NCBI GenBank assembly: GCA_000989515.1
Contig: LBOM01000004.1
Span: 56,149 to 120,148 of the forward strand
Length of the DNA: 64,000 nt
Reading direction: 5' to 3'
From: Candidatus Nomurabacteria bacterium GW2011_GWE1_32_28
GTDB lineage: Bacteria; Patescibacteriota; Minisyncoccia; Phycocordibacterales; UBA9973
Shown: positions 1 through 55,323 of the stretch, one piece after another
How positions within the stretch are numbered: the stretch's first letter is position 1
Layout of the letters: each line of letters starts with the position of its first letter
Notes under the pieces: generated by a model
Seen by the model: the letters and a program-made list of their open reading frames with translations, nothing else
Database searches by the model: none
What the model was told of the DNA's origin: nothing
Program-made: the position numbers and the translations under genes

Positions 1-3000
1 CATCATATGGATTAGTTCTCGTCTGATCATAATTACTGTCAGTTGCATAACTAAGAACTGGATAAGATTTAATATTTGTACGGAATGTCACTACGACACT
101 ACTCTCAGTAATATCAGATACAACGGGTTTATCAATAAATGGAGGAATAAGTGAAGGTAAAATTGATTCGATTGTTGCTTCTATCTCTTCCTGAAATTGT
201 TCAATATTTTCAATACTTTTTAAATCTGAAACATCTTCAGTAAAAAATTTAGTTTTAAAAATCTTGTCTTCCGCAAAAGTTGCATTACCTGACTTATCTA
301 CGACAGTAACTTTTATATGATAGTCTGTACCCAATCTTAATCCTCCTAACTTAATAGTATGTTTTTTACTCCAAACATTATTTGCCGAATTGTCACCATA
401 GCCAGTATCTTTTCCGTATTCAACAAAGGACAAGGTATCTTCATCTGTATCAAAACTAACAAGAGCTTGAAACGGTGTAATATCAGAAATTTCTATATTT
501 GATATCAAAGGAGCTGTCGTATCAGGGATAAACATTGAAACATTATCATTATCTGGATTATTTGTAGTATAGTCATTAACTATTACTCTTGTTCTTGTAA
601 CAGTAACTACAGGTATAGTAGAAAATGTCTCTTCTGAAGATTGAGCAAGATTGTTAGATGAATCTGAAGATTTTACAACAAAAAAATAAGGAATATTCTC
701 AACTAAAGTATTATCAAACCCTTGATCATCTAAAGTAGAAGAACTTAACGTAACTACATGATAGATAGACAAAGTTGAATCTAATACTGTTGTATGGTCC
801 AAAACACCTGCTTCAGTACCATATGAAATTTGAGAAGTTGCTGGTTCATCTGTTGTCCACACAATAGCCGCTGCATTTGTAGTTATTACTGGAACAGAAA
901 TTTCTGTAATAATTGGTGGAGAGCTATCAATAACATTAACTGTTCTTGTTTCTGTCGCAGTACTTCCATCTACATCAGTTGCTAGATATGTAATTGTATT
1001 ACCAGTAGAAGCTGAAGCAGTACTAATAGTACCTATTACGGTGACATCCAAGCTATCACCCGAAATAGATGATACTGCTGTAGCTCCAGGATCTACAAAA
1101 ACATCACCCTTATCAACAGTCATCGGATTGTCTCCTGATAAAGTAATAATAGGAGGATTTGATTCCAAAGAAGAAAATGCAACATTTATAGTATGAGCAT
1201 CTACAACATTTGTAAATGTATATGTTTCCGCTACGATTAAAGAAACATCATCAACAATTAAAGAAGAAATTTGATAACCCTCATCTGGAGTAATTGTATA
1301 AATTTGATTGGTTGTTGATGGAACGGCTGTAACTCCAAGTGGAGAAATAGTTCCATTTGCACCAGCTGAAGCAGTAACATTATAAGTATCAGCATAAACA
1401 ATATTAACAGTTCTAGTTGCAGTAGCGCTATTTTTTGCAACATCAACTACTCTATAAGTTATTGAATAAGAACTTATAGCAGAAGTATTAATCGATCCAG
1501 TTGTTGTAATTGAAGAAGTAATGTCTCCATCTATATTATCTGTTGCTGTTGCACCAGGATCTACATATGTTTCGCCTTTTACTACTGATATCGGATTATC
1601 ACCCAATATTGTTATAACTGGTACTGTTGTATCTGGATTATCTGTAAAAGTAACAGCAATAGAGTGTGTAGCGATAACATTACTAAAAGTATAACTTAAA
1701 GCAGAAGCTATCTGCACTCCATCTATAGTAAGAGTATCAACACCATAACCCTCATCTGGAGTAATTGTATAAATTTGATTGGTTGTTGATGGAACGGCTG
1801 TAATTCCAAGTGGAGAAATAGTTCCATTTGCACCGGCTGAAGCAGTAATATTATAAGTATCCGAAAGAACTACATTTACTGTTCTTGTTTCAATAGAAGT
1901 ATTACCTACTAAATCAGTTGAAGAGTATGTTACAACATAAGAATCAACAACAGAAGTAACAACTACTCCAGATGTTGTTACTTCTGTTGCTCCATCTACT
2001 TCGTCTAAAGCTGTTGCACCTAATTCAGAATATACATTATCTTTAATTACTGACATTGGATTATCACCCAAAATTGTTATGACTGGTGGAGTTGTATCAT
2101 TTTCATTATTAGTAATTGTATATGTATGGGTTATGTTTGTACCCAATGTTGAATTACTTGGATTTGATAAAGTAATTATAATTGTCTCATTAGACTCAAC
2201 CAAAGAATCATCTACAACAGTTACTGAAATATTTGCAGTTGTTTGACCTGCTGAAATTGTTACAGTACCACTGGTAGCTAGTGTATAGTCTGTGCCACCA
2301 CTTGTTGCTGTTCCTCCAGAAACTGTATAATCAACAGCAATATCTTGATATGATGCAATAGAAAGAGAAACTGGAATAGTTACTGAAGTCACACTCTCTA
2401 GCCCACTTGAAGTAGTCGTGTCAAATGCAATAGTTGAAGCAGTATCATCATCTGTAATTGTATATGTATGAATTGTGTTTGTCCCCAATATTGAGTTATT
2501 TGGATTTGATAATGTAATCTCTATTGTCTCGCTAGATTCAAAAACAAGATCATCTACAACAGTTACTGAAATATTTGCAGTTGTTTGACCTGTTGAAATT
2601 GTTACAGTACCACTGGTAGCTAGTGTATAGTCTGTGCCACCACTTGTTGCTGTTCCTCCAGAAACTGTATAATCAACAGTAGTATCAGAACCAGAAACTG
2701 CTGAAAGAGTGATTGGAATATCTATTGAAGTTACACTTTCTAAGCCACTTGATGTAGTTGTATCAAATGCAATAGTTGGAGCATCATCATCATCTGTAAT
2801 TGTATATGTATAAATCGTATTTGATCCTAATATTGAATTTATTGGATTAGATAAAGTAATTATAATGGTTTCATTATTTTCTTCTAAGGAATCATCAACG
2901 ATAGTGACTGAAACACTTGCAGTTGTTTGCCCTGCTGTAATAGTTGCAGTACCTGAGGCAAGAGTATAATCTGAACCACCACCTGTTGCTGTACCTGAGA

Positions 3001-6000
3001 TAGTATAATCTACAGTAGAATTAAACGGATATGCTCTAGCTAAAGTAATACCAAATGTAGCTGAAGCGACACTTTCAAGATCAGAAGAAGCTGTAGAATT
3101 AAACGCGATAGCAGGAACAGTCAAATCAAAAGTATTTAATATTCCATTTTCAGAATAATCATTTTGACTTGAAACAGGTCCTGATCCAGGATCTTGATTA
3201 TCATGAACCAAAACTCTTATTCCAACATTAGAGTATGAACTTCCGACAAGAGCAGATTCATCATAAATAGTCCATCCTATCGATCCATCTTGTCCAGAAG
3301 ATATTGTACTATTTGTAATAGTAGTAGGTGTCGTTGTATTTGCAATTACCCATACTGGAGTACCAGCAAAGAAAGTAAGATTCTGTCTTGTTGCACGAGG
3401 AGCTATTGGCCATGTACCACGAGTAAGACCAGTCAAAGTATTTCCAGTTTTTCCTGTGTAATATATTACTTCATTATTTACTTGAATATAACCAGATGAT
3501 TGTAATTTTGATGCATCTGATACTGTAAGATTTCCTCCAGAATAAGCATTGGATGGTAAGGTAATTCCAATGTTGTAAAATATACGAGCATCATAAGAAG
3601 GATTAATTTTCTGAGATAAAGAAGCATCTGTTAATCTATAAGTAACAGTAACATCTTTATTAGTTTCTTGAGTAGGAACAACATTTTCTACTTTTGATGC
3701 AGTAGCCACACTTCCACCTCCACCTTCACCATAGTTTTGAACTCCATCTGGTTTTGCTGTAGTATATGCTCCTGCACGAACAGAAGTATTCTCATCAGTT
3801 CCTACTACTCCTAATCTATATCTATAAAATTTTGTTGAATCTAAATTTCTATGAACATAATAATTTGTAACAGGGTTAGACATACCATCTCCAACTGAAG
3901 CATATGATCCATAAGTCACGTTGTCTGTTGAAGTTGCATATTCTAAATTATAAGAAGCAAAACCTGTTGTATCATCTAATGCCTTCCAACCTATATACAT
4001 ATCGTAAGATGGAATAGTAATATTAGATGTATCTTGTACTAGAAATGAAGTTGCGAGAATTGGAGATAATGTAGAAGTTGAAACTTCATCAGTTGTATTT
4101 CCATAAGCATCTCTAAATTGATATTTTAATGTTTTTATTTCTACATCAGAATCAAAAGTCCATGGTATTGTCGTACTACTCGTAATACTTGTCCATCCTG
4201 TTGTCGTAACATCCGCCTCTGAAGCACCATCAGTAATCAAATATTCTATAGCAGAAATATCTGTAGGTATCGGAATAGTGATAATCGCACTATCTACTAC
4301 ACCAGCACTTCCTGCATCAAATGTAATAATTGCAGTAGGTTTTTTTGCGTCAAAAATAAATGCAGAAGAAACGAGTGAACCTATCATAGATCCAGTAGAT
4401 CCATCATTGACTACAACTTTTATTGTTTCAGTTGCATTCTCGTATCCATCTGCGTCTGTTGCTGCTGTCCAAGATATTACTTTTCCTGTACCAATATTTG
4501 ATAATCCAATACCCGTACCTGTTGCGGAAGAAGCATATAAATAAATTGAAGCTCCTGTAGTATGTGCAAATGCTATAGTACTCAATGCTCCTCTTGTAAG
4601 AGTTTGTAGATCATTTTCTGATTTACTTGCATAAGAAATCATTTCATCATCTATCAGAATAGTTCCAGAAGATGGTAAATGTGTCGCATCAGAAACTGTG
4701 AGTGTTGTTGCTCCACTTGTGATAGTTTCATTCAAAGTAGCGTCAACTAAATAATATAAATAGTTTGTAGTTTGAGAAGATTCAACATCCGTGACATCAT
4801 AGCCGACAGTCACCACTCCACTTAATGCCATAGAAGCTGTGATGTTAGAAACTACTGGAGGAGAATTTACAAATTTAAATGAAAGAGCTTGAACAGGACT
4901 TTCTTCGTTAAGAGCGCTATCTATAGATTTAATATGAATTAAATAAATATGATTTATGACTAATGGTACTGTTGAAGAATCAAAACTCCAAGTGTTTGTG
5001 CCTGTAGTAGTGATATATGTTTCTGTAGCATCTGTAAAAGATGTCCCACTATACCATTTGTCTACAGAAACATCAGTATCTTTTATAGAAATTTGAACAG
5101 AATCAATTCCAGATCCACCTACATTGTCTGTTGCGGTTCCTAAAATCGATTGTACACTGTATGTTTCTTGGGGGCTTACAGATTGTCCAGGAGTTGTACA
5201 CCCATTTCCTGCAACACTACAAATTGCTGTGATTGTAGAAGATAAAGGGACAGTATTGTCATAAGTTCTATTTAGTTGTGTTGCTACAGAATTAACATTT
5301 CCTAAAGCATCTGTTGCTACACCTCCTGCTATGTCTACTGACACTGTTCCATCTGCTGTAGGAGTGACTACAAAAGTATATGTTGTACCACTTCCTGCAA
5401 AAGTTCCTGCTGTACCATTTGTAATAGTTATATCTCCTATTACAAAATCTGAAACTGATTCATTAAATGTAGCTGTGACATCTATGTTTCCATTTGTTGG
5501 GTCTGATGTTTCTGAAGTCATAACAACTGTAGGACCAGAAGTATCAATATTAAATGTCGCATTAGTCGGAGCACTAGATGCATTTCCTGCTGTATCTGTA
5601 GTAGCAGAAAGAGAAACTGTAGCTACACCATCTACATATGTACTTCCATCTGTACCACTTCCTGTCATAGCTACATTTGTAATATCTGTAGTTCCAGGTT
5701 GGTTAATAGAAATGTTTGGTGTTGTGGAAGGTGCTTCACTGTATGTAGCTGTGACTGTCATTGCTCCTGCTCCTGCTGGGTCAGAGCTATAGGTTAGAGC
5801 TACTGTTGGACCAACAGAGTCTATTGTAAATGTCGCATTAGTCGGAGCACTAGATGCATTTCCTGCTGTATCTGTAGTAGCAGAAAGAGAAACTGTAGCT
5901 ACACCATCTACATATGTACTTCCATCTGTACCACTTCCTGTCATAGCTACATTTGTAATATCTGTAGTTCCAGTTTGGTTAATAGAAATGTTTGGTGTTG

Positions 6001-7069
6001 TAGTTGGAGCTTCGTTGTATGTAGCTGTGATTGTCATTGGTGCTACACTAGTTGTAGAGTAATACGCTACACTATTTGGTGTAAAGTTAGATCCATCTGT
6101 TGGAAATGGATTATTTGTATTCCATCTTATTTCATCCATGCCTTGAGGATTTGCTGCATAACTATAATTCATCTTAACAGCACTTATTGTATTAGTATCT
6201 GTTCCAATTACATTAGTTGCAGTAGCTTTAAGTACACCCCCTACAAACAATCTCCATGTATCTCCACTACGTTGTATCGCTACATGTGTCCAGACTCCAT
6301 TTGTAAAAGCAAGTGGTACATTCCAAGAAATACCTGGTAAATTTACGTTTAAGTCACGACCTACAGAAGTCTCAGATACTACCAAACTACCTATAGATCC
6401 AACTACTTCAAACATATTAAAATTGGCCCCGCTAGTATTATGTAAATGCCAAAAATCTAAAGACCACTGAGAATTCGCTCTCCAGTCAAAATCCTGTAAA
6501 TTATTAGTTATATTTACATATCCGTAACTCCCATTAACAGCTTTACCTGAATATTTATATGAACCATATTTACCACCAGCTAATATCCCAGAATCATTAA
6601 TATATGTTAATGTATGCCTACTCATTCTATCACCACTATTGTCTGCCTCAGCATTTAACCAAAGTTTAGTTGAATCAGAAATACCATTTGAATCAATTGT
6701 TATTGCTCCTGCTGGTGCTGGATTAGAGCTATATGTTAGGGCTACTGTTGGACCAAAATCTGCGGTTATAGATAATGTTCCTGCAATTGAATCAAGTTTA
6801 CTAATAAATATGTCAGTACCACCTGCTGAAGTTAAATTATATACACCTGCTCCTGGATCAAAATCTACTGTGTCATTAAAATATCCTGTTGTATATATAT
6901 TACCACTAGAATCAATTACAATAGAATTACTATAATCATTAGAAATACCACCTATGCCTTTTGCCCAAACAAAATTACCAGATGAATCAAGTTTACTAAT
7001 AAATATGTCAGTACCACCTGCTGAAGTTAAATTATACACACTTGCCCCTGGGTCAAAATCTGCTGTGCC
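1..7069 (-). CDS. giant secreted multidomain surface/adhesin-like protein, main body (partial: continues beyond position 1; out of frame with its own signal-peptide ORF at 7071-7514)
   Basis: No complete minus ORF is listed across 1-7070, consistent with one frame running off the window edge; all plus-strand ORFs listed here are short, low-complexity antisense artefacts. My own reverse-complement translation gives a single open frame with SBBP-type beta-propeller repeats (GGISNDYSNSIVIDSSGNIYTTGYFNDTVDFDPGAGVYNLTSAGGTDIFISKLDSSGNFVWAKG), a LamG/concanavalin-like segment (~6100-6600), tandem 92-aa Ig-like units, three Calx-beta units (DYTLATSGTVTISTGQTTANISVTVVDD..ETIEITLSNP), DUF5011/HYR-like units (ITILGDNPMSV..) and FN3-like segments. 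Confidence 0.75.
2111..3140 (-). repeat. three tandem ~342-nt units each encoding a Calx-beta domain
   Basis: unit starts gtaattgtatatgta at 2111, 2454 and 2796; each translates to the DYT..G.V.IS.GQTTA.ISVT.VDD...E..E...ITLSNP Calx-beta signature. Confidence 0.65.
5553..6104 (-). repeat. two tandem ~276-nt (92-aa) near-identical Ig-like domain units
   Basis: aatgtcgcattagtcggagcactagatgcatttcctgctgtatctgtagtagcagaaagagaaactgtagc... occurs at 5553 and again at 5829 with ~90% identity. Confidence 0.7.
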
Positions 7070-7140
7070 ATTAAAAGATCCTGTTATATATATAACCACT
7101 AGAATCAACTACGATAGAATTACTAACATCATTAGAAATA
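6780..7140 (-). repeat. two tandem ~180-nt SBBP-type repeat units inside the giant gene
   Basis: near-identical nucleotide blocks 6780-6960 and 6960-7140; also visible as similar antisense peptides in ORFs 6639-6935 and 6954-7190. Confidence 0.7.
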
Positions 7141-7514
7141 CCACCCATCTTTTTTACAAACCCAAAAACAGTAATTTCATACGTTGTTGATAAATTTCCA
7201 TTTCCATCAATATCTGTAGCAACATCTGCTGGTACATCCACCACAACCACTCCATCCGTTGAAGGAGTAACTATAAAAGTATATGTAGTACCACTTCCTG
7301 AGAATGTACCTACTGTTCCATTTATTACTAAAATATCTCCTACTGCGAAATTTGACACTGATTCACTAAATGTAGCTGTAACATTTATGTTTTCATTCGT
7401 TGGATCTGAATTTGTCGAAGTTAATATCACGGTAGGATTATCAGTAGCATACACCTTATCAAAAGATACAGTAATAAAAGAAAAGATCAAAACAAAAACA
7501 ACAATTGGCATCAT
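7071..7514 (-). CDS. N-terminal fragment of the giant surface protein (signal peptide plus first repeat), cut off by a frameshift
   Basis: ORF 7071-7799(-). The signal peptide MMPIVVFVLIFSFITVSFDKVYA starts at the internal ATG at 7514; the 95 upstream K/R-rich codons cannot precede a signal peptide. The ORF stops after ..VVDSSGYIYNRIF where the paralogous downstream unit reads VIDSSGNIYTTGYFN. Confidence 0.6.
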   Translation of the reverse strand: MMPIVVFVLIFSFITVSFDKVYATDNPTVILTSTNSDPTNENINVTATFSESVSNFAVGDILVINGTVGTFSGSGTTYTFIVTPSTDGVVVVDVPADVATDIDGNGNLSTTYEITVFGFVKKMGGISNDVSNSIVVDSSGYIYNRIF

Positions 7515-8148
7515 TTTTATTTTTCTTATTTGTTTCAAAAAATAAATAGCATTTTGTATAACATAAAAACTTTTTTTTATTTTCTTATTCATTTTTTTTG
7601 TAATATTTTGCATTTTTGTATTCTCTTCTTTTCTATTTATTCGTAATCTATTTTTTAATTTTAATTTTATCCTACTAAAAAATCTTCTTCTGTTTAGAGA
7701 AATTTTATCTGGCAATTTTATTTGTTTAAAAAACAAGAGAGCTCGTAAGAGCACTTTTCTTCTAAATGAATTTATTAATTTATTTTTTATTTTTTTCAAA
7801 ATATTTTTAGCTCCTTAATTACTTAAATTATATCATAAAAAAACACTGAATTTAAAAACAAAAACTGTTAATAACCCTTATTTCATAAAAAGAAAATTTA
7901 AATTTAATTTTTGTTTAAAATTTATAAAAATTATTTTAAAAAGAAGAATTTATGTATTAGAAAGTTCAAAAAATTTATAATCATAATTATAGAATAAATT
8001 AGAGTAGAAAGAAGAAATAACATTAAAGGATTGATAAATTCTTACCTTATTTATTAAAAATTTATGAAAAATTAACAATCTTAAAATATATAGTTTTATA
8101 TGACTTTTATACGCTAGATATGATCAAACATTAATAAACGATAATAAT

Positions 8149-18364: not shown

Positions 18365-19168
18365 TTATTTCTCAACTTGCACAAACTTCAATTCTTGAAT
18401 ATTTACTGGACTAACAAGTAAAACTTTCTGGAAAGAATCACGTGGATCTGAGACAATAGTCTGAACTATTCCAATAACATAGGAATCTATGCCAGGTAAA
18501 ACAACTTCTGTCCCTTTTTCTAAAACAAAATCTCTGGGTAATATCATTTCGAAATTTCCATTACCACGACCAATCAACTGCATGAGTACATCATTACCAA
18601 CAATAACAACTTCTACTTTTTCTCCAGGATTAGAAAATAAATTAATTTTCGAATAATTAGAATATACTTCTGCAACATGTCCTAATGGGATATTTCCAAA
18701 TGCAAAAACTCTTTGCCCAGAAACCACCCCATCTTTTGCGCCTATATCTATTATAATAGTACTATATATAGATTGATTTTGTTTTGATAAAATAGTGGCT
18801 AAAATCATATCACTATCTTTATGTTTGCGTCCTAGGATTTCTTTAATTTTATAATTTTCTTCTAGAATAGAATTATAATTAGAAATTCTTGCTTCTTGTT
18901 CATCTAATTTAAATTTTAAATTTTCATTTTCTAATAAAAGAGATTTTTTAAAATAAAAATAAGAACCAGTTCCAGATATTATCTGACCAATATTATTTCC
19001 TAAAACCAAAACAGGACGAAAAACAAAATAAGAAAAACTAGAAAGTCTATTAAAAACAGGACTTCTAAAATAAGCCAAAACACATAAAACTAAAAAAGAA
19101 ATTATATATTTGATTAACTTATTTCTTTTTGTTTTTTTATCTAGGAGGTAACTCATCTTGATTGCCAA
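18365..19168 (-). CDS. mreC: rod shape-determining protein MreC
   Basis: N-terminal TM helix, coiled coil ENENLKFKLDEQEARISNYNSILEEN, C-terminal beta domain; directly downstream of mreB. Confidence 0.8.
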   Translation of the reverse strand: MAIKMSYLLDKKTKRNKLIKYIISFLVLCVLAYFRSPVFNRLSSFSYFVFRPVLVLGNNIGQIISGTGSYFYFKKSLLLENENLKFKLDEQEARISNYNSILEENYKIKEILGRKHKDSDMILATILSKQNQSIYSTIIIDIGAKDGVVSGQRVFAFGNIPLGHVAEVYSNYSKINLFSNPGEKVEVVIVGNDVLMQLIGRGNGNFEMILPRDFVLEKGTEVVLPGIDSYVIGIVQTIVSDPRDSFQKVLLVSPVNIQELKFVQVEK

Positions 19169-20183
19169 TTAAAACTTCTTTAAAAAACTCTACGTCATCT
19201 AAAATGACACCAGTACCACGCGCAACAGCAGAAAGTGGATCATCTACAACATATACAGGTATTTTAAGAACATTTTGCAATAATTCTGCAAGACCTGGTA
19301 ATAGTGCACCACCACCAGAAAGAGTAATACCTTTGTGCATTACATCAGACAAAATTTCAGGAGGTGTCGTTTCAAGCACATCTTTTACACCTTCTATGAG
19401 TTCTTTAATGGATTGAGAAAATGCTTCACGAATATCAGAATCAGTAACAACCACTTCACGAGGTAATCCTGTTAATAAATCACGTCCACGTACTTCTGTC
19501 TCCATATATTCTCCTGGAAGCACAGAACCGACGACTATTTTAACCATTTCAGCAGTGGTCTCTCCTATTAAGATCTTAAACTCATCACGCATATACGTGA
19601 TAATATCATTATTAAATTTATCTCCTGCAATTTTTAAATTTTTTGATTTAACAATTCCACCCAAAGAAATAACAGCAATATCTGTCGTACCACCACCAAT
19701 ATCTATTATCATAGATCCAACAGGATCTTTTATTGGAAGTCTTATACCAATAGCAGCGGCCATTGGTTCTTCTACTAAAAATACTTCTCTTGCTCCAGCT
19801 GAACGAGCAGCATCATAAACAGCACGTGTCTCAACATTTGTTGTACCAGAAGGTACACCGACAATAACTCTTGGTTTAATAAATTTCTTAGAAATTTTAT
19901 CCGCCTTATTTATTAAATAAGAAAGCATTTCTTCTGTAACTTCAAAATCTGAGATAACACCATCCACAAGAGGGCGAACTGCTCTAATATGTCCAGGTGT
20001 ACGTCCTAACATATCTTTTGCTTTCTCTCCAACAGCAAGTATCTGGTTTGTTTTTACATTTACAGCAACCACAGAAGGTTCATTGATTACGATACCATGA
20101 CCTTTTAAATAAACTAAGGTATTTGATGTACCCAGATCTATTCCTATGTCATTCGATATTAATTTATAAATTTTATCAAACAT
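19137..20183 (-). CDS. mreB: rod shape-determining actin homologue MreB
   Basis: IGIDLGTSNTLVY, IDIGGGTTDIAVISLGG, GGGALLPGL. Confidence 0.9.
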   Translation of the reverse strand: MFDKIYKLISNDIGIDLGTSNTLVYLKGHGIVINEPSVVAVNVKTNQILAVGEKAKDMLGRTPGHIRAVRPLVDGVISDFEVTEEMLSYLINKADKISKKFIKPRVIVGVPSGTTNVETRAVYDAARSAGAREVFLVEEPMAAAIGIRLPIKDPVGSMIIDIGGGTTDIAVISLGGIVKSKNLKIAGDKFNNDIITYMRDEFKILIGETTAEMVKIVVGSVLPGEYMETEVRGRDLLTGLPREVVVTDSDIREAFSQSIKELIEGVKDVLETTPPEILSDVMHKGITLSGGGALLPGLAELLQNVLKIPVYVVDDPLSAVARGTGVILDDVEFFKEVLIGNQDELPPR

Positions 20184-20212
20184 AATATAAAACAGCTTAC
20201 AGATTTTAAATA

Positions 20213-21469
20213 TTAACTTACAGTTTTTAAAATATTAATCAATTCATCAAGAGAAACAATCTTACCTTTTTCTTCATTTCTTTTTTTTATTTCTATTCCT
20301 TTTTCTTTCATACTTCTAGAAGAAATAACTAGACGAAAAGGAATACCTAGTAAGTCTGCATCTGCAAATTTTTCACCAGGAGATAAATCATTCCTATCAT
20401 CAAAAAGTACTTCTATGTTTTCCTTTATTAAAGCATCATATACAAAATTCGCTTCTTTTTTAACATCTTCATTATCACTCAAAGAAAGAAGATGTACTTT
20501 AAATGGAGCGATAGATTCAGGCCAAATTATACCCTTGTCGTCAGAAAGAGCCTCAACAACAGTGCCCATAAGACGCCCAGGACCAATACCATAAGAACCC
20601 ATAAAGACAGGCCTAGATTCTCCTGTTTCTGTCTGATATTTTAAATCAAGAACATCTGAAAAACGAGTCCCTAAGGTAAATATATTACCCACTTCTACAG
20701 CTTTTGTTTCTTTAAAATTATCGCCAAGACCTAAATCTTTTTTAATTTCATCTGTAAAAACTTCTTTATTAATAGCAATATTATTTTCTTCATTAATATA
20801 AATAGTATCTTCCCCCGTAGAAGAAATCGTTTGAAATTCATGAGAGAATTTTGAGAAAGAACCACCTGAAGCAAAAGTCAAATAAGTCAAATGTCCTATA
20901 CCTACTCTTTTAAAAATATTCTTATACGCTATTTTTGCTTTTTCATAAAATTCATTATGTTCATGTTCGTCTCTAGAGAAAGAATAAAGATCTTTCATTA
21001 CAAATTCTCGAGTACGCATTATTCCACTTTTTGCACGAGTCTCATTACGAAATTTTGTTTGGAATTGATACACAAAACATGGCAAATCACGATATGAACT
21101 AATATAATTTTTCATAATGTTGGTTAGGGGTTCTTCATGTGTAAAACCCAAACCAAGCTCAGTATCATTTTTTAATTTTGTCTTAAACCATATATCTACT
21201 TTTTCATCATCAAAACGATCTGTTTTTTTCCAAAGTTCTGGATTCTGAAGTGCGGTCATTACAATTTCTTGTCCACCAATGGCATTCACCTCTTCACGAA
21301 TAATATTTTCTATGTTTTTTAGAACACGTAAACCAAGAGGTAAATATGAGTATACTCCTGCCATTTCTTTATTGATAAAACCACCTCGAATAAGAAGCTC
21401 TGCATTTTTTGACACTTCATCTGTTGGTGCCTCTTTTTTTGTTTTAGTAAAAAGCTTAGATTGTCTCAT
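20213..21469 (-). CDS. proS: prolyl-tRNA synthetase (bacterial type lacking the editing insertion)
   Basis: class II motif 2 FRNETRAKSGIMRTREFVMKDLYSF; C-terminal anticodon-binding domain. Confidence 0.85.
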   Translation of the reverse strand: MRQSKLFTKTKKEAPTDEVSKNAELLIRGGFINKEMAGVYSYLPLGLRVLKNIENIIREEVNAIGGQEIVMTALQNPELWKKTDRFDDEKVDIWFKTKLKNDTELGLGFTHEEPLTNIMKNYISSYRDLPCFVYQFQTKFRNETRAKSGIMRTREFVMKDLYSFSRDEHEHNEFYEKAKIAYKNIFKRVGIGHLTYLTFASGGSFSKFSHEFQTISSTGEDTIYINEENNIAINKEVFTDEIKKDLGLGDNFKETKAVEVGNIFTLGTRFSDVLDLKYQTETGESRPVFMGSYGIGPGRLMGTVVEALSDDKGIIWPESIAPFKVHLLSLSDNEDVKKEANFVYDALIKENIEVLFDDRNDLSPGEKFADADLLGIPFRLVISSRSMKEKGIEIKKRNEEKGKIVSLDELINILKTVS

Positions 21470-21610: not shown

Positions 21611-22360
21611 ATGCAAACTACGAATTTGAAGTCACAAGAAAAAGAAAATAATATTAAAGATACTTCTGTAAATATTGAAAAAATGTTTGAAGTAGGTGCC
21701 CATTATGGATACGGAAAGTCAAGAAGACATCCTTCTGTCTCTTCATATATATATGCCACCAAAAACAGCAGTGATATTATAGACCTTGAAAAAACAAGCA
21801 CAATGCTTAAAGATGCTTTAGAATTTGTTAAGAATTTAGGTGCTCAGGGCAAAACTATTCTTTTTGTTGGTTCAAAGCCTGAAGCTAGAGATATAATCAA
21901 AAATTCAGCATTAAGTTTAGATATGCCTTATGTTGATATACGTTGGATCGGGGGAACGTTAAGTAATTTTACAGAAATCAAAAAAAGAATTGCTGAACTT
22001 GAAAAATATAATAAAGAAAATACAGAAGGTGGACTTGAAAAATATACTAAAAAAGAAAGAGTAGTCATGGCAAAAAAAATGGAAAAACTTACAAAATTTT
22101 ATGGAGGGTTAATTGGTCTTAAAAAAACACCAGATGCTTTATTTATTATTGATTCAAAAGCAGAACATATAGCTGCAACAGAAGCAAGAAAATCAAACGT
22201 CCCTGTTGTTGCATTAGCAAATTCTGATTCAAATATAAAAGGTATAGACTACCCTATCGTTGCCAATGATTCTGGAATACCATCAATAAAACTTTTTACC
22301 ACTTATATCATTAATGCTTACAATGAAGGTTCAAAATCTTTAGCTGTAAAAGAAAAATAA
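21611..22360 (+). CDS. rpsB: 30S ribosomal protein S2
   Basis: MFEVGAHYGYGKSRRHPS.., ..IDSKAEHIAATEARKSNVPVVALANSD; start at ATG 21611 rather than TTG 21575. Confidence 0.85.
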   Translation: MQTTNLKSQEKENNIKDTSVNIEKMFEVGAHYGYGKSRRHPSVSSYIYATKNSSDIIDLEKTSTMLKDALEFVKNLGAQGKTILFVGSKPEARDIIKNSALSLDMPYVDIRWIGGTLSNFTEIKKRIAELEKYNKENTEGGLEKYTKKERVVMAKKMEKLTKFYGGLIGLKKTPDALFIIDSKAEHIAATEARKSNVPVVALANSDSNIKGIDYPIVANDSGIPSIKLFTTYIINAYNEGSKSLAVKEK

Positions 22361-38340: not shown

Positions 38341-40281
38341 GTGAAAAAAGAATACAAAAAGGAAGAAAAAAGAGTAAGTAAAGTAATACAAGGAATCATA
38401 TCTGTTTCTGCAAAAGGCACAGGATACCTAAGAGTCCCTGATTATAAAGAAGATCCTGAGATTAACTTCAAAGATTTAAACACAGCACTTCATGGTGATG
38501 TAGTTGAAATTATACTAAACCCAAAAGGACATGGACGTATTACTGCAAAAGTATCCAAAATAATCTCACGTGCAAAGATTGGTTTTTCTGGAGTTTTAGA
38601 AAAAAAAGATAATAAATATTTACTAAAACCAGATGATACAAAAATGTACACTTATATTTTAATATCAGAAAAAATGTTAAATGGTGCGAAGATCGGACAA
38701 AAAGTTTATGTAGAAATAACCCTTTGGAAAGATTCAACAAAAATGCCAGAAGGAAAAATAGTAAAAGTTTTAGGACAACCAGGAGAAAATAATGCAGAGA
38801 TGTATGCCATTGCGATAGAAAAAGGTTTCAACAGTGATTTCCCTCAAAAAGTAGAAGAAGAAGCGAGAAAAATAAAAAATCTTGGTATCAGTAATGAAGA
38901 TTATAAAGATAGACGTGATTTTAGAAAAACTCTCACATTCACGATTGATCCAGAAGATGCAAAAGATTTTGATGATGCTATTTCTTTTAAAGAAATTGGA
39001 AACAATGAATACGAAATAGGGATACATATAGCAGACGTCTCTCATTATGTAAAAATAGAAAGTGAGCTCGACCGTGAAGCAAGAAAAAGAGGAACCTCTG
39101 TATATTTAGTAGATAGAACGATACCAATGCTGCCAGAGATTCTCTCAAATGACTTATGCTCTCTTATGCCAAATAAGGATAGACTAACCATGAGCGCTGT
39201 TTTTGTTTTAAATAAAAATGCAGATGTTTTAAAAGAATGGTATGGACACACAATAATACATTCTCAAAAAAGATTTTCTTATGAAGATGCAGAGAAATCT
39301 ATAAAAAAAACAGAATTACCATTTCATAAAGAACTTTCTATTTTAAATAATCTAGCAAAAAAATTAACAAAAGAAAGATTTACAAATGGTGCTATATCGC
39401 TAGAACAAGAAGAAGTAAAATTTATCTTAGATAAAAATGGAACACCTATAAAAGTAATCAAAAAAGAACGAGGTGATTCTAATAAATTAATAGAAGAATT
39501 TATGCTTTTAGCAAATAAAAAAATAGCTGAAACTATTTCAAAAGGCACAAAAAAAGAAGGTGGAGTGTTTGTATATCGTATACACGATAACCCAAACAAA
39601 GAAAAGATGACAGACCTAGCATTCTTCTTGCGAAGCTTAGGACATAAAATATCTTTAGTAGATGGAATCATTCCAACAAAAGAAATAAATAATCTTTTAA
39701 AAAAACTAGAGGGTAAAAGTGAAGAAAGTACAGTTAATCGTGCAGTAATACGCTCTATGGCAAAAGCAATTTATTCTACAAAAAATGTGGGACATTATGG
39801 TTTAGCATTTGAGTATTACGCTCACTTTACTTCACCCATTAGACGATATCCTGATATAGTAGTACACAGACTTTTAACAGATTATCTAAATAAATTAAAA
39901 GTTGGTAAAGAAAAATTAAATATATATGAAGAGATATCAAGACATGCATCAGAACGAGAAAAATATGCCTCTGATGCTGAGAGAGCTTCAATAAAATATA
40001 AACAAGTTGAATATATGTCTTCTCGTATTTCAGAGACATTCAAAGGAATAGTGAGTGGATTAACAGAATGGGGTATCTATGTAGAAGAAAAAGAAACAAA
40101 ATGTGAAGGACTTGTGCGAGTAAGAGACATGGGAGATGATTTTTATGTTTTTAATGAAAAGAAATTAGAACTAGTTGGTCAAAAAAAGAAAAAAAGGTAC
40201 CGCCTTGGTGATAGTGTCACAATAAAAGTAAAAAGTGTTGATTTAGAAAAAAAGACAATAGACTATATATTGATAATATAA
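38341..40281 (+). CDS. rnr: ribonuclease R (RNase II family)
   Basis: RNB-domain motifs TIDPEDAKDFDDA, HIADVSHYV; C-terminal S1-like region; GTG start. Confidence 0.8.
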   Translation: MKKEYKKEEKRVSKVIQGIISVSAKGTGYLRVPDYKEDPEINFKDLNTALHGDVVEIILNPKGHGRITAKVSKIISRAKIGFSGVLEKKDNKYLLKPDDTKMYTYILISEKMLNGAKIGQKVYVEITLWKDSTKMPEGKIVKVLGQPGENNAEMYAIAIEKGFNSDFPQKVEEEARKIKNLGISNEDYKDRRDFRKTLTFTIDPEDAKDFDDAISFKEIGNNEYEIGIHIADVSHYVKIESELDREARKRGTSVYLVDRTIPMLPEILSNDLCSLMPNKDRLTMSAVFVLNKNADVLKEWYGHTIIHSQKRFSYEDAEKSIKKTELPFHKELSILNNLAKKLTKERFTNGAISLEQEEVKFILDKNGTPIKVIKKERGDSNKLIEEFMLLANKKIAETISKGTKKEGGVFVYRIHDNPNKEKMTDLAFFLRSLGHKISLVDGIIPTKEINNLLKKLEGKSEESTVNRAVIRSMAKAIYSTKNVGHYGLAFEYYAHFTSPIRRYPDIVVHRLLTDYLNKLKVGKEKLNIYEEISRHASEREKYASDAERASIKYKQVEYMSSRISETFKGIVSGLTEWGIYVEEKETKCEGLVRVRDMGDDFYVFNEKKLELVGQKKKKRYRLGDSVTIKVKSVDLEKKTIDYILII

Positions 40282-42221
40282 TGAGTATAAAACATAGCTC
40301 CAGTCAGAAAATTAAACTATGGTTTTGGTCAATATCTATAATTATTATAGGTGTATTCTTTTCATCTTTTATTTTTAATAATGTTAATTATCAAAAAATA
40401 ACAAAACTAATAAATTCAAAAGAAAAAACAGCAATAGCAATAGAATCTTTCTCATCAGCTGATATTGTCCCTCAGTATTTCTACTTTACCAAAGATGTAA
40501 ATCAACAACCAAAAGTTTCAGCTGGTGCATACTTAATTGGTGATTTAGATACAGGAGAAATAATTCTCTCAAAAAACAAAGAAAAACAATTTCCAATAGC
40601 TTCAGTATCAAAATTGATGACTGCGACAGTCGCTATAGAATTAGCAAAGGAAGATGATATAGCCAAGGTTTCCAAAAAAGCGTTAGCTACTTATGGACAA
40701 AATGGTGGATTAAAATTAGCAGAAAAAATAAAAGTTACAGATCTCATTTATCCACTACTACTAGAATCAAGTAATGATGCTGCCGAAATAATAGCTGAAT
40801 ATTTTGATAGAAATATTTTTCTTAAAAAAATGAACCAAGAAGCTCTAAAACTGGATCTATCTCAAACAACATTCGAAGATCCGAGCGGACTTTCTTCAAA
40901 AAACCAATCAACTGTTTTTGATATGTTTAAACTAGCTGGATATATAAATAAAAAAAAACCAGATTTATTAGAAATAACAATGAAAAAAAGTTATACTAAT
41001 AAAAATCATAGCTGGTTTAGCACTAACCAATTCCTATCAGAAGAAGGATATTTAGGAGGAAAAAGTGGATACACAGATCCCGCAATGCAAACAGTCATCT
41101 CTCTCTTTTCACTCCCCTTGGGAGAAGTTGGAAAACGTAATATTGCTATTACATTACTACAAAGCAAAGATCGTTTTAAGGATGTAGAAAATATTTTAAA
41201 TTATTTAAATAAAAATATATATTATGGTGGAGAAGCAGATGCAAATACATCTTGGGTAAAAGAAAGAACAGATTTACCACCGATATTTGATCAAGATTTT
41301 GTGACTCTTCTATTTGGTGGAGATGCTATGCTCGACCGTGGAGTAAAAAACTCTGTAAACAAAAATTTTAAAGGAGATTATTCAGCACTTTTTGATAAAT
41401 TATCAATATTAAAAAAATCTAACATTACTTTTATAAACTTGGAAGGTCCAATATCTGATACTGGAAAAGACATAAAAAATCTATACTCATTTAGGATGAA
41501 CCCTTCTGTCGCACCAGCACTAAAAGGAGCAGGTATATCTATAGTCTCGGTTGCAAACAATCACGCTGGAGACTGGGGACGTGATGCATATATTGATTCA
41601 TTAGGACGTTTAAAAGAAAATGAAATTTTATATACAGGAGGAGGACTAACAGAACAAGAAGCAGAACAACCAACTATCATTGAAAAATATGGAATGAAAA
41701 TAGGATACCTAGGATTCTCAGATGTAGGACCAGATTCTATGAAAGCAACGACAAATAAAGCCGGTTTACTACTTGCTAATAACCCAAATTTTACTGAAAT
41801 AATACAAAATGCTTCAAAAAAAGTTGATTATTTAGTTGTAACATTTCATTTTGGAGATGAATATAAAACCAAACATAATGCAAGACAAGAATACTTAGCA
41901 CATAAAGCAATAGATGCTGGTGCTAAAATTGTAATAGGAACTCATCCTCATGTAATAGAAGATACAGAAGTTTATAGTCCAAAATCTTGCACTCAAATTT
42001 CATGTATGGGATTTATAGCATATTCATTAGGTAATTTTATTTTTGATCAAGGTTTTTCTGTAAATACAATGGAGGGTATGCTTCTTGAAATTAAATTAAA
42101 CAGAGATGGTAGTATGTCCACAAAGAAAAACGTAGTTCAATTAAACAGACTTTTTCAACCAAACAATATAATTATAGGAAAAGAAGAAAAAATAAAATTT
42201 AAAGAAAAATCTGACTACTGA
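40281..42221 (+). CDS. fusion of D-Ala-D-Ala carboxypeptidase (peptidase S11) with a CapA/PGA_cap metallophosphoesterase domain; N-terminal membrane anchor
   Basis: S11 motifs ASVSKLMT (SxxK), ESSND (SxN), KSGYT (KTG); CapA motifs LLFGGDAMLDRG, NLEGPIS, SVANNHAGDWG, GTHPHVIED. Confidence 0.75.
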   Translation: MSIKHSSSQKIKLWFWSISIIIIGVFFSSFIFNNVNYQKITKLINSKEKTAIAIESFSSADIVPQYFYFTKDVNQQPKVSAGAYLIGDLDTGEIILSKNKEKQFPIASVSKLMTATVAIELAKEDDIAKVSKKALATYGQNGGLKLAEKIKVTDLIYPLLLESSNDAAEIIAEYFDRNIFLKKMNQEALKLDLSQTTFEDPSGLSSKNQSTVFDMFKLAGYINKKKPDLLEITMKKSYTNKNHSWFSTNQFLSEEGYLGGKSGYTDPAMQTVISLFSLPLGEVGKRNIAITLLQSKDRFKDVENILNYLNKNIYYGGEADANTSWVKERTDLPPIFDQDFVTLLFGGDAMLDRGVKNSVNKNFKGDYSALFDKLSILKKSNITFINLEGPISDTGKDIKNLYSFRMNPSVAPALKGAGISIVSVANNHAGDWGRDAYIDSLGRLKENEILYTGGGLTEQEAEQPTIIEKYGMKIGYLGFSDVGPDSMKATTNKAGLLLANNPNFTEIIQNASKKVDYLVVTFHFGDEYKTKHNARQEYLAHKAIDAGAKIVIGTHPHVIEDTEVYSPKSCTQISCMGFIAYSLGNFIFDQGFSVNTMEGMLLEIKLNRDGSMSTKKNVVQLNRLFQPNNIIIGKEEKIKFKEKSDY

Positions 42222-47225: not shown

Positions 47226-48146
47226 TTATTTTTTAGTTAATATTTCAATCGCACGAGTTATAAGTGGAATAATGTCATTATAAACACGAAGTTCTGGTAA
47301 TTCTTTAAGTTGAAACCAACGAGCATTATCTAACCCACCAGAATCTCCTAATTTAAGTTCAGTATATTCACTTTCTGCCAAGAAATACACAACTTTTTTT
47401 AAAATCTTACCTTTTTCTGGATGTGAGGCTACATATTCATTTTCACCAATTTTTTCTTTTATTGTGATATCAAGACCAACTTCTTCTTTTATTTCCCTTA
47501 TTGTTCCATCTTCTGTCTCTTCATTTTCTTCTATTCTACCCTTAGACAAAGTCCAGTAACCAAAAACATCATGTACTAATGCAAAAAAGAAAGCACCATC
47601 TTTTTTAGCATATATCAATGCCCCACCAAGTTTTTCAACTGGTAATTTTGAAACATCTAGAGGTTCTTCATTTTCTTTCTTTTTACTTATTTGCTCTTTT
47701 CCTGGTTCTCCTATTTCTTTATAAACTGCACCAAGTACACCATTTACAAATTTACTAGAATTTTCTCCACCAAAAGTTTTTGCTAATTCAATTGCTTCAT
47801 TTATAGCAACCTTTGGAGGTACTTGATTTCTATCACCAAAAAGAAGCTCTGTTAAACCAATCCTTAAAATATTTCTATCAACAATAGAAATTTTATCTAA
47901 TGGCCAATCTGGTGCTGCTTTTTCTATTATTTCATCAATTACTTTACAATTTTTAAAAACTTCTTTTATTAATGTAGACACAAAAAAATCATCCTCGAGG
48001 CCAGGAGCAAATTCTTTAAGATTTCTATTTAAAGCTTCTTTTTTTTTATCATCAGTCCAAGCATTATCTTGTTCTGACGTAGTAATAAAATCCCACTCAA
48101 AAAGTGTCTGTAATACTATTGATCTTGAAAGGTGCCTATTTGCCAT
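47226..48146 (-). CDS. nusB: NusB-like antitermination domain fused to a C-terminal NUDIX hydrolase domain
   Basis: NusB fold in residues 1-140; NUDIX box [23 protein letters not shown]. Confidence 0.65.
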
Positions 48147-52697: not shown

Positions 52698-53375
52698 TTA
52701 TTTTACCTTTTTCATTATAAAAAGATATTTAAATCCTCTTAGATAGAAATTATATTGTCTTGCTCTTTCGTGCCAAATTCCTGTGTTTGATGTTTGATTA
52801 TGCCGAGTTAAACAAATCATATCAATAGTTTCAAAATATTTTTCTAACCTTTGCCACATTAAAAAACCAACAGGTGTAAATTTCTTTTTAACCCACTGAT
52901 CAGCAATAACCCAACCTACTACTTTACCTTGTTTTAAAACTCTTGCAATTTCACTAGCTGTTTTTTCTAACTCATCATAAAATTCAGTTTTTTCGCAAGA
53001 AATTTTACCAATACATTCTTTATTATCAGAATAATTTATATTATCAGAATAAGGTGAATCAATAAAAACAAAATCAACAGAATTATCTTCAAGTGGAATT
53101 TTACGAGAATCATTTTTTATTATTTCTGGTCTTGTGACATTTATATCATAACCAACAACTCTTCTCTTTAATTCATTTGCAACATCAATAGTCGTTCCAC
53201 TTCCACACATTGGATCAACAACTAAATCCCCTTCTTTTGTATATCGTTGAAGTAAATTCCAAATTACTAATGCTGGAGTAACTCCATTGTATTTGTTATT
53301 TCCATGAGACTTATTGCCATAATTTTGTGTAGGAAAATCCCAAAGCGTTGTTGATTCAATTTTTAAATCATTCAT
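52698..53375 (-). CDS. DNA methyltransferase (N4-cytosine or N6-adenine, gamma-like motif order)
   Basis: motif I VVDPMCGSGTT; motif IV FIDSPY. Confidence 0.75.
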   Translation of the reverse strand: MNDLKIESTTLWDFPTQNYGNKSHGNNKYNGVTPALVIWNLLQRYTKEGDLVVDPMCGSGTTIDVANELKRRVVGYDINVTRPEIIKNDSRKIPLEDNSVDFVFIDSPYSDNINYSDNKECIGKISCEKTEFYDELEKTASEIARVLKQGKVVGWVIADQWVKKKFTPVGFLMWQRLEKYFETIDMICLTRHNQTSNTGIWHERARQYNFYLRGFKYLFIMKKVK

Positions 53376-53378
53376 AGA

Positions 53379-54047
53379 TTACTTTAAAAGTTTTTTTAAA
53401 TCAACAATAAATTTATCAAACATTTTTACTTTATTACTTTCTTCTATATTAGTTTCACTTAAAACATAACTTCCATCAGTATCTGTCTCAACAATCGCTC
53501 TACCTTTCTTTGTTGGTTTTTTAATAGTCAATGTTCCATCTTCGTCAGGGGTTACAAAATAAACTTTTATATGTTTAGTCGCCTCATCAGAAGCAAGTTT
53601 CATTTTCCAATAACCAGTTTGAGCAATTCTCTCTCTTAATGTAACCTTACTCGACAAAACTGCAACAACCTTACTTGTTTTTGGATTATAAATAATCAAA
53701 TCAACATCAGGTAAATGAGAACCAAATTCTCCATAATCAACGATTAAATTTCTTTTTACTAAACTTAATTCTTTTGACAAATTAACACTATTCGTCCGTT
53801 CTAAACTATTACCATTTATAACAATAAGTCCAAGTGCTTGAACTTCATCATTTATAATATGTTCAATTAACTTTTCTAAATTTTTACCCTTAAAAGCACG
53901 CCAAGATTGTTCATGGTCATTACCAACAAAATCTTTACCATGTTGTTCTTTTGCTTCTTTTAATAAATTAGAAATATGCCTATATGTTTCTATTCCATAC
54001 TTTTTCTTTTTTATTTCATAAATTTTTATAAGATCATTTATTGTCAT
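53379..54047 (-). CDS. putative type II restriction endonuclease
   Basis: 222-aa ORF nested between two MTases; possible PD-(D/E)xK elements PDVDLIIY..LSSKVTLRER; no recognisable family. Confidence 0.4.
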   Translation of the reverse strand: MTINDLIKIYEIKKKKYGIETYRHISNLLKEAKEQHGKDFVGNDHEQSWRAFKGKNLEKLIEHIINDEVQALGLIVINGNSLERTNSVNLSKELSLVKRNLIVDYGEFGSHLPDVDLIIYNPKTSKVVAVLSSKVTLRERIAQTGYWKMKLASDEATKHIKVYFVTPDEDGTLTIKKPTKKGRAIVETDTDGSYVLSETNIEESNKVKMFDKFIVDLKKLLK

Positions 54048-54051
54048 AATT

Positions 54052-55323
54052 TTATTTTTCCATTACTAAAATATATTCTGTAGGATAAGCAAAAACCTTA
54101 TTTTTATCGGTTATCCGAGCAAATTTTCCTGTTTTCTCATCTCGAACAGAAGGTAAATTTTTTGATGGTATTTCTCTTTTAATAATATCAACCACTTTTA
54201 ATCCTAAATTTTGTAATTGTTCAACAAAAACTTCTGCATTAAGAATATCAACACCGATTAAACTTGTATTTCCCACAACAATACAAGTTTTACCACCCTT
54301 TTTTAATACTCTTTTCATTTCAACAAAAACTTGATTCATTTCGCTAAAATAAGTTGAAACTTCTTCAGCAGTTTTTTTATGTTTTATTAAAAGATCACTT
54401 CTTATTTTTTCAGCAAGCTTACTATTTAAAACTAAATCTTTTTTACTATGATATGAAGTCCCAATAAATCTTTTACGAAAATCACTTAAATCCTTTGTGT
54501 GTTCCAGCCATAATGCTGTTAATTGATGCAAGTCTGCATATTCATAAGAAGTAACATATGGTGGAGATGTAACAATTAAATCTACACTTCCATTTTTTAC
54601 TGGAATAGTTCTTGCATCTGTACAAACCACCTTACTAGAAATTTTTAAATAACCTTTTTTTGATAATAATTCAAACAGTTCAGCGTTACCACGTAACATC
54701 ATTTTTGTTTGTCTCAAAAATGTTTTAATTGGTTCTGATGGTTCTTTCCCAAAATCTCTTGTTGGTTTATTACTCTTTTGTAGCCAGATTGAACAATTTT
54801 TAAGAATATTTGAAAATCCACAAAAGAAAAAATCTTGAACATCCTGATCTTTAACTTTTATTATTTTAGAAAAAATAAACGCTAACCTCCTTTTTTCTTC
54901 TGCTTTAAACCAATAATCAATTCTTTCATGAGTGGGAACTTTTACTTTTATGTCTTTGTTATATTTTTCTAATTTCTTTTTTAATATTTCAAATTCTTTT
55001 TCAATTTTAATTGGATTTATTGGGGTAATTTTAGCTTTTGTTATCAAGACAGCTACAGGATTAATATCAACCGCTATTGAATATCTTCCCATAATTTTAG
55101 ATTCAATAATAGTTGTGCCACAACCACCAAATGGATCAACTATAAAATCACCCTTCTTTGTATATTTTTCTGCCAAACGAGAAACTATTTGTGGAATAAA
55201 TTTTGCAGGATAACGATGATACCCATGTGTAATGTAAGAAGTTTCTTTTCTTGTTTTATCAGAAAATGACCAAGATTTATCAATTTTTATTTTATTTAAT
55301 ATAGAAATTACAGATTGACTCAT
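54052..55323 (-). CDS. DNA methyltransferase (SPPY motif, alpha-like motif order; possibly N4-cytosine)
   Basis: HGYHRYPAKFIPQ..IVDPFGGCGTT (motifs X-I); IVTSPPY (motif IV). Confidence 0.75.
   Translation of the reverse strand: MSQSVISILNKIKIDKSWSFSDKTRKETSYITHGYHRYPAKFIPQIVSRLAEKYTKKGDFIVDPFGGCGTTIIESKIMGRYSIAVDINPVAVLITKAKITPINPIKIEKEFEILKKKLEKYNKDIKVKVPTHERIDYWFKAEEKRRLAFIFSKIIKVKDQDVQDFFFCGFSNILKNCSIWLQKSNKPTRDFGKEPSEPIKTFLRQTKMMLRGNAELFELLSKKGYLKISSKVVCTDARTIPVKNGSVDLIVTSPPYVTSYEYADLHQLTALWLEHTKDLSDFRKRFIGTSYHSKKDLVLNSKLAEKIRSDLLIKHKKTAEEVSTYFSEMNQVFVEMKRVLKKGGKTCIVVGNTSLIGVDILNAEVFVEQLQNLGLKVVDIIKREIPSKNLPSVRDEKTGKFARITDKNKVFAYPTEYILVMEK

Follow-up and report, generated by a model that had tools for sequence, protein, structure and literature searches.

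Why does the gene for a giant surface protein in a groundwater bacterium of Candidatus Nomurabacteria change reading frame after the part that encodes its export signal, and is the protein still made? Giant surface proteins are the main candidates for the attachment of CPR/Patescibacteria to their hosts. The window studied here (the whole stretch of DNA that was analysed, 64,000 nucleotides long) carries such a gene on its minus strand, and a short run of TA dinucleotides separates a small N-terminal reading frame from a very long second one. The preliminary description of the locus placed three readings side by side: an assembly or sequencing slip at a dinucleotide repeat, a pseudogenising mutation, or a slipped-strand phase-variation switch for a surface adhesin. 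The evidence set out below makes it likely that a recent slippage deletion, fixed in the population, cut the giant surface protein off from its sole export signal, leaving a gene that is off or a young pseudogene.

Layout of the split gene

The features on which the argument depends are as follows.

7071..7514, minus strand: ORF1, the N-terminal fragment, 147 aa from ATG 7514
7446..7514, minus strand: signal peptide or N-terminal anchor, MMPIVVFVLIFSFITVSFDKVYA, from a Kyte-Doolittle scan
7179..7445, minus strand: Big_12 bacterial Ig-like domain (Pfam PF19078, E = 8.9e-14, residues 24-112)
6983..7154, minus strand: SBBP repeat unit 1, which holds the frameshift; first half in the ORF1 frame, second half in the long frame
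7071..7108, minus strand: 38-nt overlap of both frames, including AGG AUC UUU UAA U at the end of ORF1
7085..7094, no strand assigned: (TA)5 tract, the frame-change site, TATATATATA, from reading of the sequence
7071..7073, minus strand: TAA stop codon of ORF1, from reading of the sequence
6788..6962, minus strand: SBBP repeat unit 2, the intact reference paralogue, with its own TA run, (TA)4 at 6892-6899
2..7108, minus strand: ORF2, encoding the body of the giant protein; 2369 of its codons lie in the window, and it runs past the window start

ORF1 runs from ATG 7514 to the TAA at 7073-7071; its product starts with MMPIVVFVLIFSFITVSFDKVYA followed by TDNP, ends in DSSGYIYNRIF and contains, in order, the signal segment, the Big_12 domain and the first half of an SBBP repeat. 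A TAG at 7111-7109 closes the ORF2 frame, which from TTG 7108 onwards has no stop for 2369 codons, up to base 2 of the window; public contigs from this organism extend it to 2660 codons before its stop. The preliminary description was thus right about both pieces, an N-terminal ORF with its signal peptide at 7514 that stops at 7071, and a body of more than 2300 aa that stays open for more than 7 kb in the other frame.

Gene callers treat the two pieces as separate genes. They start ORF1 at TTG 7799, which gives a 242-aa product that is on record as KKP23725.1, HAS80849.1, HBP27728.1 and HBR66014.1 and is listed in GenBank as a separate hypothetical protein; the body is likewise called as a separate product of 2657-2660 aa. 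Exact look-up returned no record of the 147-aa ORF1 from ATG 7514, because gene callers begin at TTG 7799. ORF1 has further in-frame ATGs at 7613, 7592 and 7511. A promoter scan of the upstream region found fewer sites than in shuffled sequence and says nothing about the true start. Upstream of the 33 window genes that start with ATG there are almost no Shine-Dalgarno-like motifs (5/33, all weak), and these upstream regions are A/T-rich. Recognition of the two pieces as one split gene avoids two misannotations, one of ORF1 as a small secreted protein with an Ig domain and one of the body as a cytoplasmic protein of 2660 aa.

The domain content of ORF2 comprises SBBP, laminin-G-like, Big_12, three Calx-beta, three Bact_surface_Ig-like and FN3-like domains, with Big_12, SBBP, the three Calx-beta and the three Bact_surface_Ig-like domains scoring above the Pfam cut-offs. 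A Sec signal together with arrays of extracellular domains places the fused product among the SBBP / Ig-like giant extracellular proteins. In the conceptual 2891-aa fused protein the segment at 7446..7514 is the sole hydrophobic one (Kyte-Doolittle, 19-aa window, the only one >1.5). This single segment sits in ORF1, and the body is therefore without an export or anchoring signal of its own.

The gene is rich in internal repeats. A 342-nt tandem repeat (2.6 copies, 82% matches) occupies 2112-2996 of the window, in the Calx-beta part of the gene, and several public contigs end within the internal repeats.

A frame change inside one SBBP repeat unit

The (TA)5 tract lies 140 codons past ATG 7514, between the signal peptide and Ig domain on one side and the body on the other, and any frame change that rescues the protein is possible only inside the 38-nt overlap of the two frames. 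An internal standard for this region is provided by the second SBBP unit, which starts 193 nt downstream of the first and reads DSSGNIYTTGYFN with AATATATATACAACA. Aligned as DNA, the two units show 93% mean column identity and a single internal gap of 2 nt, at or beside the tract; the 2-nt tract difference noted in the preliminary description is confirmed, and the distance between the units is corrected from 180 to 193 nt. At the protein level, identity to the paralogue is 17/20 before the tract in the ORF1 frame and 30/34 after it in the long frame. Since homology to the paralogue switches frame at the tract, a frame switch within one repeat unit is certain, and the frameshift inside SBBP unit 1 can, from the letters of the sequence themselves, be taken with certainty as real.

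The tract on its own would attract little attention. A (TA)5 run is expected by chance 0.34 times per window, and at least one was found in 23/100 shuffles. What goes beyond chance is the 7-kb open frame together with the frame-switching homology, not the (TA)5 repeat.

Changes in the number of TA units have sharply different outcomes. With (TA)3, (TA)6 or (TA)9 the gene becomes one uninterrupted ORF, while 2, 4, 5, 7 or 8 units give 207-292 stops; one extra TA is enough for a single stop-free ORF of 2796 aa from ATG 7514. The junction sequence of the body joined to ORF1 would read ...YIYITGSFNGTADFDPGASVYNLTSAGGTDIFISK. With the Pfam SBBP profile (cut-off 20.5 bits), the versions of the junction unit obtained the scores listed here.

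(TA)6 junction unit, ...DSSGYIYITGSFNGTADFDP...: 26.0 bits, with a match that spans the junction
ORF1 tail as truncated: 17.6 bits
1-nt deletion repair: 18.1 bits
Product of a +1 ribosomal shift: 16.2 bits
(TA)3 junction unit: no match to the SBBP profile
Unit 2, the intact paralogue: 29.5 bits

(TA)6 is the version that best restores the SBBP repeat. Three hypothetical in-frame products (two with (TA)6, one with (TA)3), each ended at an observed contig end, were looked up, and none is on record.

Is the break real?

An error at the tract would be the simplest way to explain a broken frame: the true sequence would be in frame, and the call of (TA)5 at a dinucleotide repeat would be wrong. Indel errors are classic at repeats, and the assembly of this window does deviate from all others elsewhere in the giant gene, where two 33-nt gaps are found. 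Public contigs of the same organism, from Candidatus Nomurabacteria MAGs of the GW2011 and UBA series, were found by exact look-up of neighbouring proteins. Sixteen own-species loci were fetched from two NCBI MAGs, four JGI metagenomes, three ENA assemblies and Logan per-run assemblies. All 16 have (TA)5, and the sequence around the tract is 100% identical to that of the window. The truncated 242-aa product was found on 26 contigs (21 with an M start and five from JGI with an L start), and this total equals the number of records with the neighbouring YceG gene, so that no public contig remains for another allele. Both counts, 26/26 and 16/16, are at consensus level, where a minority of (TA)6 cells is invisible, and they represent independent assemblies and samples rather than lineages, as all contigs are identical over >20 kb and come from one population, apparently from one aquifer. 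Logan contigs from seven runs pass the tract unbroken and end only ~80 nt further on, at the repeat, presumably because the SBBP units are identical beyond the k-mer length.

The same tract was therefore recovered by different assemblers from different data sets (NCBI UBA and GW2011 MAGs, JGI, ENA and Logan). The remainder of the window speaks against an error as well. No other frameshifted gene was found among those examined in the 64 kb, which include the intact genes for sigma-70, DnaG, GyrB, SMC, RNase III, ThrRS, PheRS, RNR, MreB/C and rpsB. The last of these, encoding ribosomal protein S2, contains an (AT)5 at 21745-21754. Apart from (TA)5, this is the window's sole dinucleotide tract of five units; it is comparable to (TA)5, was assembled in frame and offers an internal control for slippage or stutter. 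The other examined genes being intact, including rpsB with its (AT)5, there is no general problem of assembly quality. An assembly or sequencing artefact, one of the explanations first put forward for this locus, is consequently extremely improbable; the giant surface protein is truly split in a natural population, not mis-assembled.

The two gaps mentioned above concern a 33-nt in-frame segment, TCTATACTTATGATTATTCAGTAATAGCAGCCA, that is missing from the window at 5925/5926 and at 5649/5650 of this minus-strand gene. Read in frame, it gives VYTYDYSVIAA and the opening base of the codon that follows, and it is present in every public contig that reaches the 5925/5649 region. The gaps sit in two copies of a 309-nt tandem Ig-like repeat, where the missing piece aligns with the beta-strand region of a Big_12-like domain. 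They are probably a local assembly collapse in the source of the window, or else a real deletion variant.

Search for orthologues

A relative with an intact gene would reveal the ancestral state of the tract. Searches with a word-indexed protein database, with HMMER, in metagenomes and by synteny did not find an orthologue of the giant gene, and the ancestral tract can therefore not be read from a relative; the comparison with orthologous genes in related bins that had been proposed for this locus yielded nothing to compare. With a fused 400-aa protein as query, the matches were swamped by unrelated SBBP proteins, and the N-terminal 125 aa retrieved seven distant Big_12 fragments only, in a search from which own-species proteins appeared to be hidden. 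The laminin-G-like region had no match as a protein query. A full HMMER search with body residues 100-700 returned only generic Ig-repeat giants and one fragment of the gene itself (P0247). Among metagenome contigs, a DNA pattern that allowed a gap of variable length at the tract had 0 matches, and a protein-based scan gave generic SBBP genes only.

Synteny was followed through the RNR neighbour in 80 related species, and in none did tblastn place the giant gene nearby. The contig of the closest species, PFOY01000053.1 (RNR 93%, YceG 90% and MerR 87% identical), ends 320 nt upstream of the expected gene start, and this end (locus position 7069) falls in an intergenic region, which suggests that the same hard-to-assemble giant gene is located past it. 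Literature searches for these accessions and for mismatch repair in Patescibacteria gave nothing usable.

A fixed slippage deletion as the likely cause

Because (TA)6 best restores the repeat, the simplest history is that a (TA)6 run became shorter by one unit. The ancestor would have been a single gene of ~2800 aa, encoding a Sec-exported giant surface protein of this Candidatus Nomurabacteria (CPR/Patescibacteria) population. Replication slippage then probably removed one TA unit (2 bp) from what was most likely a (TA)6 run in the first SBBP repeat, and the deletion would bring a TAA stop into frame 12-14 nt past the tract. From the real start, the predicted product would then be limited to the signal peptide, one Ig-like domain and half an SBBP unit, and the remaining 2660 codons would be stranded in the +1 frame, with neither signal peptide nor anchor. 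In the dominant genotype the giant protein would not be made in exportable form. As the body is out of frame and has no export signal, the gene is expected to be off in that genotype.

The direction of the change, from (TA)6 to (TA)5, is thus the one that we infer from the restored repeat, and the giant gene has presumably lost its function. The event also appears to be recent: no second disabling lesion occurs in the 2660 downstream codons, which argues for a young event. Further disabling mutations downstream had been named beforehand as the sign of a plain pseudogene, and this sign is missing. An intact body is also to be expected of a gene that is still used through switching or recoding, and the intact 8 kb do not discriminate between a dead gene and a used one, because the sampled genomes show no divergence (>20 kb identical), which has left too little time for decay in either case. 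Judged as a frameshift pseudogene, the locus has a frame broken relative to its paralogue and a break fixed at consensus level, with further decay absent.

A pseudogenising mutation is nevertheless the plainest of the readings first proposed, as the break is the consensus everywhere and the body is without an export signal, even though no further lesions have followed. The locus resembles other giant, repeat-rich surface-protein genes split by a frameshift, in which one indel leaves the signal peptide with the N-terminal piece and the large piece loses it. It differs from them in that secondary lesions have not yet appeared and in that the indel lies in a short repeat, so that a single-step reversion is mechanistically possible. 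Regain of a TA unit is thus possible in principle, and a useful rate of reversion is without support. As it stands, the event is an ordinary young gene inactivation, a fresh instance of a well-known kind, in which a chance TA run within a structural repeat becomes a slippage hot spot.

Possible phase variation

The same geometry could also describe a reversible switch of a surface protein, with (TA)5 as the OFF state that was mostly sampled and (TA)6 as the ON state. Frameshifts near the N terminus have been described as a simple mechanism of phase variation (PMC3315296), and the tract lies where a switch would classically be placed, towards the 5' end of the gene, with the export signal on one side and the body on the other. 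Only (TA)3, (TA)6 and (TA)9 read through, with 2, 4, 5, 7 and 8 units failing to do so; the gain of a single unit rebuilds a well-formed repeat, and the 8 kb downstream are still intact. A well-studied parallel is oipA of H. pylori, whose expression is switched through frameshifts at CT repeats in its 5' region (PMC10564699). Both genes encode a surface protein whose reading frame depends on a dinucleotide tract in the 5' part of the coding sequence, with ON or OFF determined by the number of units. The tract described here differs in having five units, in consisting of TA rather than CT, and in lying within a structural repeat rather than in a dedicated leader. It differs further in showing no length polymorphism in 26 contigs, and similar loci were found neither in the window nor in 1.25 Mb of relatives.

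Several findings weigh against a switch. One tract length was seen in 26/26 contigs and 16/16 fetched loci. The PhasomeIt cut-off for phase variation at dinucleotide repeats is at least six units, and tracts at the cut-off may switch at rates <1e-5 (PMC6321876); the observed tract of five units falls under this cut-off, and the inferred ON state has exactly six. (TA)5 is not over-represented in the window, and the only other dinucleotide tract of five units there is in frame in the essential rpsB. In 1.25 Mb from 80 related genomes, TA/AT tracts numbered 73 of four units, nine of five units and 0 of at least six units, and thus the lineage gives no sign of repeat-based contingency loci.

Of the phase switch as first proposed, the geometry fits, and the rest finds little to stand on: the tract is short, no length variant was seen, and repeat-switch loci are absent from the window and from the 1.25 Mb of relatives. 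We regard reversible switching as unlikely; it is unproven, and it is less likely than a pseudogenising mutation. If reads showed switching at the tract, they would open a first way to study how the surface varies in these uncultured bacteria.

Possible recoding of the (TA)5 template

A further possibility is that cells with (TA)5 go on producing the full-length protein, and this could happen by any of three routes: a +1 shift at UUU_UAA_U, a tandem -2 slip of the ribosome on (UA)5, or a 2-nt slip of RNA polymerase. The ribosomal -2 slip and the polymerase slip would both yield exactly the (TA)6 protein, and the junction peptide predicted for them is the same as that for ON cells, MGGISNDVSNSIVVDSSGYIYITGSFNGTADFDPGASVYNLTSAGGTDIFISK. 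After a +1 shift at UUU_UAA the predicted junction peptide is instead ...YIYNRIFNGTADFDPGASVYNLTSAGGTDIFISK. In favour of the slips, a dinucleotide repeat should let the P- and A-site tRNAs re-pair perfectly after a shift of 2 nt, and the body is intact. Polymerase slippage, for its part, is established for homopolymer runs and not for (TA)5. In endosymbionts, slippage of the polymerase at poly(A) tracts is known to rescue genes with a frameshift. The present case is similar in that a small-genome, host-dependent bacterium carries a gene that is intact apart from a frameshift at a simple repeat, and it is different in that the repeat is a dinucleotide rather than a homopolymer of at least nine.

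The +1 route merits closer attention, as the end of ORF1 has the look of a programmed site. The message reads AUC UUU UAA U at 7082-7070, the +1 frame leads on into ORF2 with AAU GGC..., and AGG(A) stands 3 nt upstream of UUU in a window where only 5/33 genes have a Shine-Dalgarno-like match, even a weak one. At AGG AUC UUU UAA U, tRNA-Phe can re-pair in the +1 frame on UUU_U with the stop codon in the A site. The best-known bacterial site of this kind is in prfB, for release factor 2, with a programmed +1 frameshift at CUU_UGA_C and an upstream Shine-Dalgarno-like element. ORF1 shares with prfB an end in a slippery XXU_U codon followed by a stop, an AGG 3 nt upstream and a next frame that is +1. 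It departs from prfB in that the codons of the repeat by themselves generate the motif, the product is a poorer match to its domain profile, and autoregulatory logic is absent.

Several observations argue against a dedicated signal. UUU UAA is an out-of-frame reading of conserved TG(S/Y)FN codons, and ACAGGATATTTTAAT recurs in the intact paralogue. In this organism Shine-Dalgarno sites are hardly used, given that matches occur in so few genes and are weak. The +1 product has the lowest SBBP score among the versions that match the profile (16.2 bits). The 90 nt past the tract fold worse than shuffled sequence (-11.2 vs -16.5 kcal/mol, z = +1.9), and being less structured than the shuffles they offer no stimulatory RNA structure. 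A prfB-like reading of AGG AUC UUU UAA U was set aside on account of the scarcity of Shine-Dalgarno sites, the poor SBBP score and the lack of RNA structure. Low-level leakiness is possible, and nothing suggests programming; production of the full-length protein from the (TA)5 template is, overall, highly unlikely.

Switching and recoding would share one biological consequence. A working switch of low rate, or recoding on (UA)5, could let a minority of episymbiotic CPR cells display a 2800-aa adhesin, an outcome that we consider quite improbable. If either is true, Patescibacteria would gain their first described case of repeat-based ON/OFF control over a giant surface protein. The fixed slippage deletion remains the reading that we prefer for the dominant genotype.

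Other genes in and beside the window

Several neighbouring loci deserve a brief mention. Downstream of the giant gene, just past the window start (18743-20729 of the public contig locus), lie a response-regulator-like gene and a MacB-type ABC transporter pair, in the order ABC_tran, then MacB_PCD/FtsX. A restriction-modification cluster at 52698-55323 of the window includes a BsaWI-like type II endonuclease at 53379-54047, flanked by ORFs of 225 and 423 aa, both of which match the N6_N4 DNA methylase profile in its C-terminal part only. Unusual fusions were seen at 40281-42221, where Peptidase_S11 (D-Ala-D-Ala carboxypeptidase) is joined with PGA_cap, and at 47226-48146, where NusB is joined with NUDIX.
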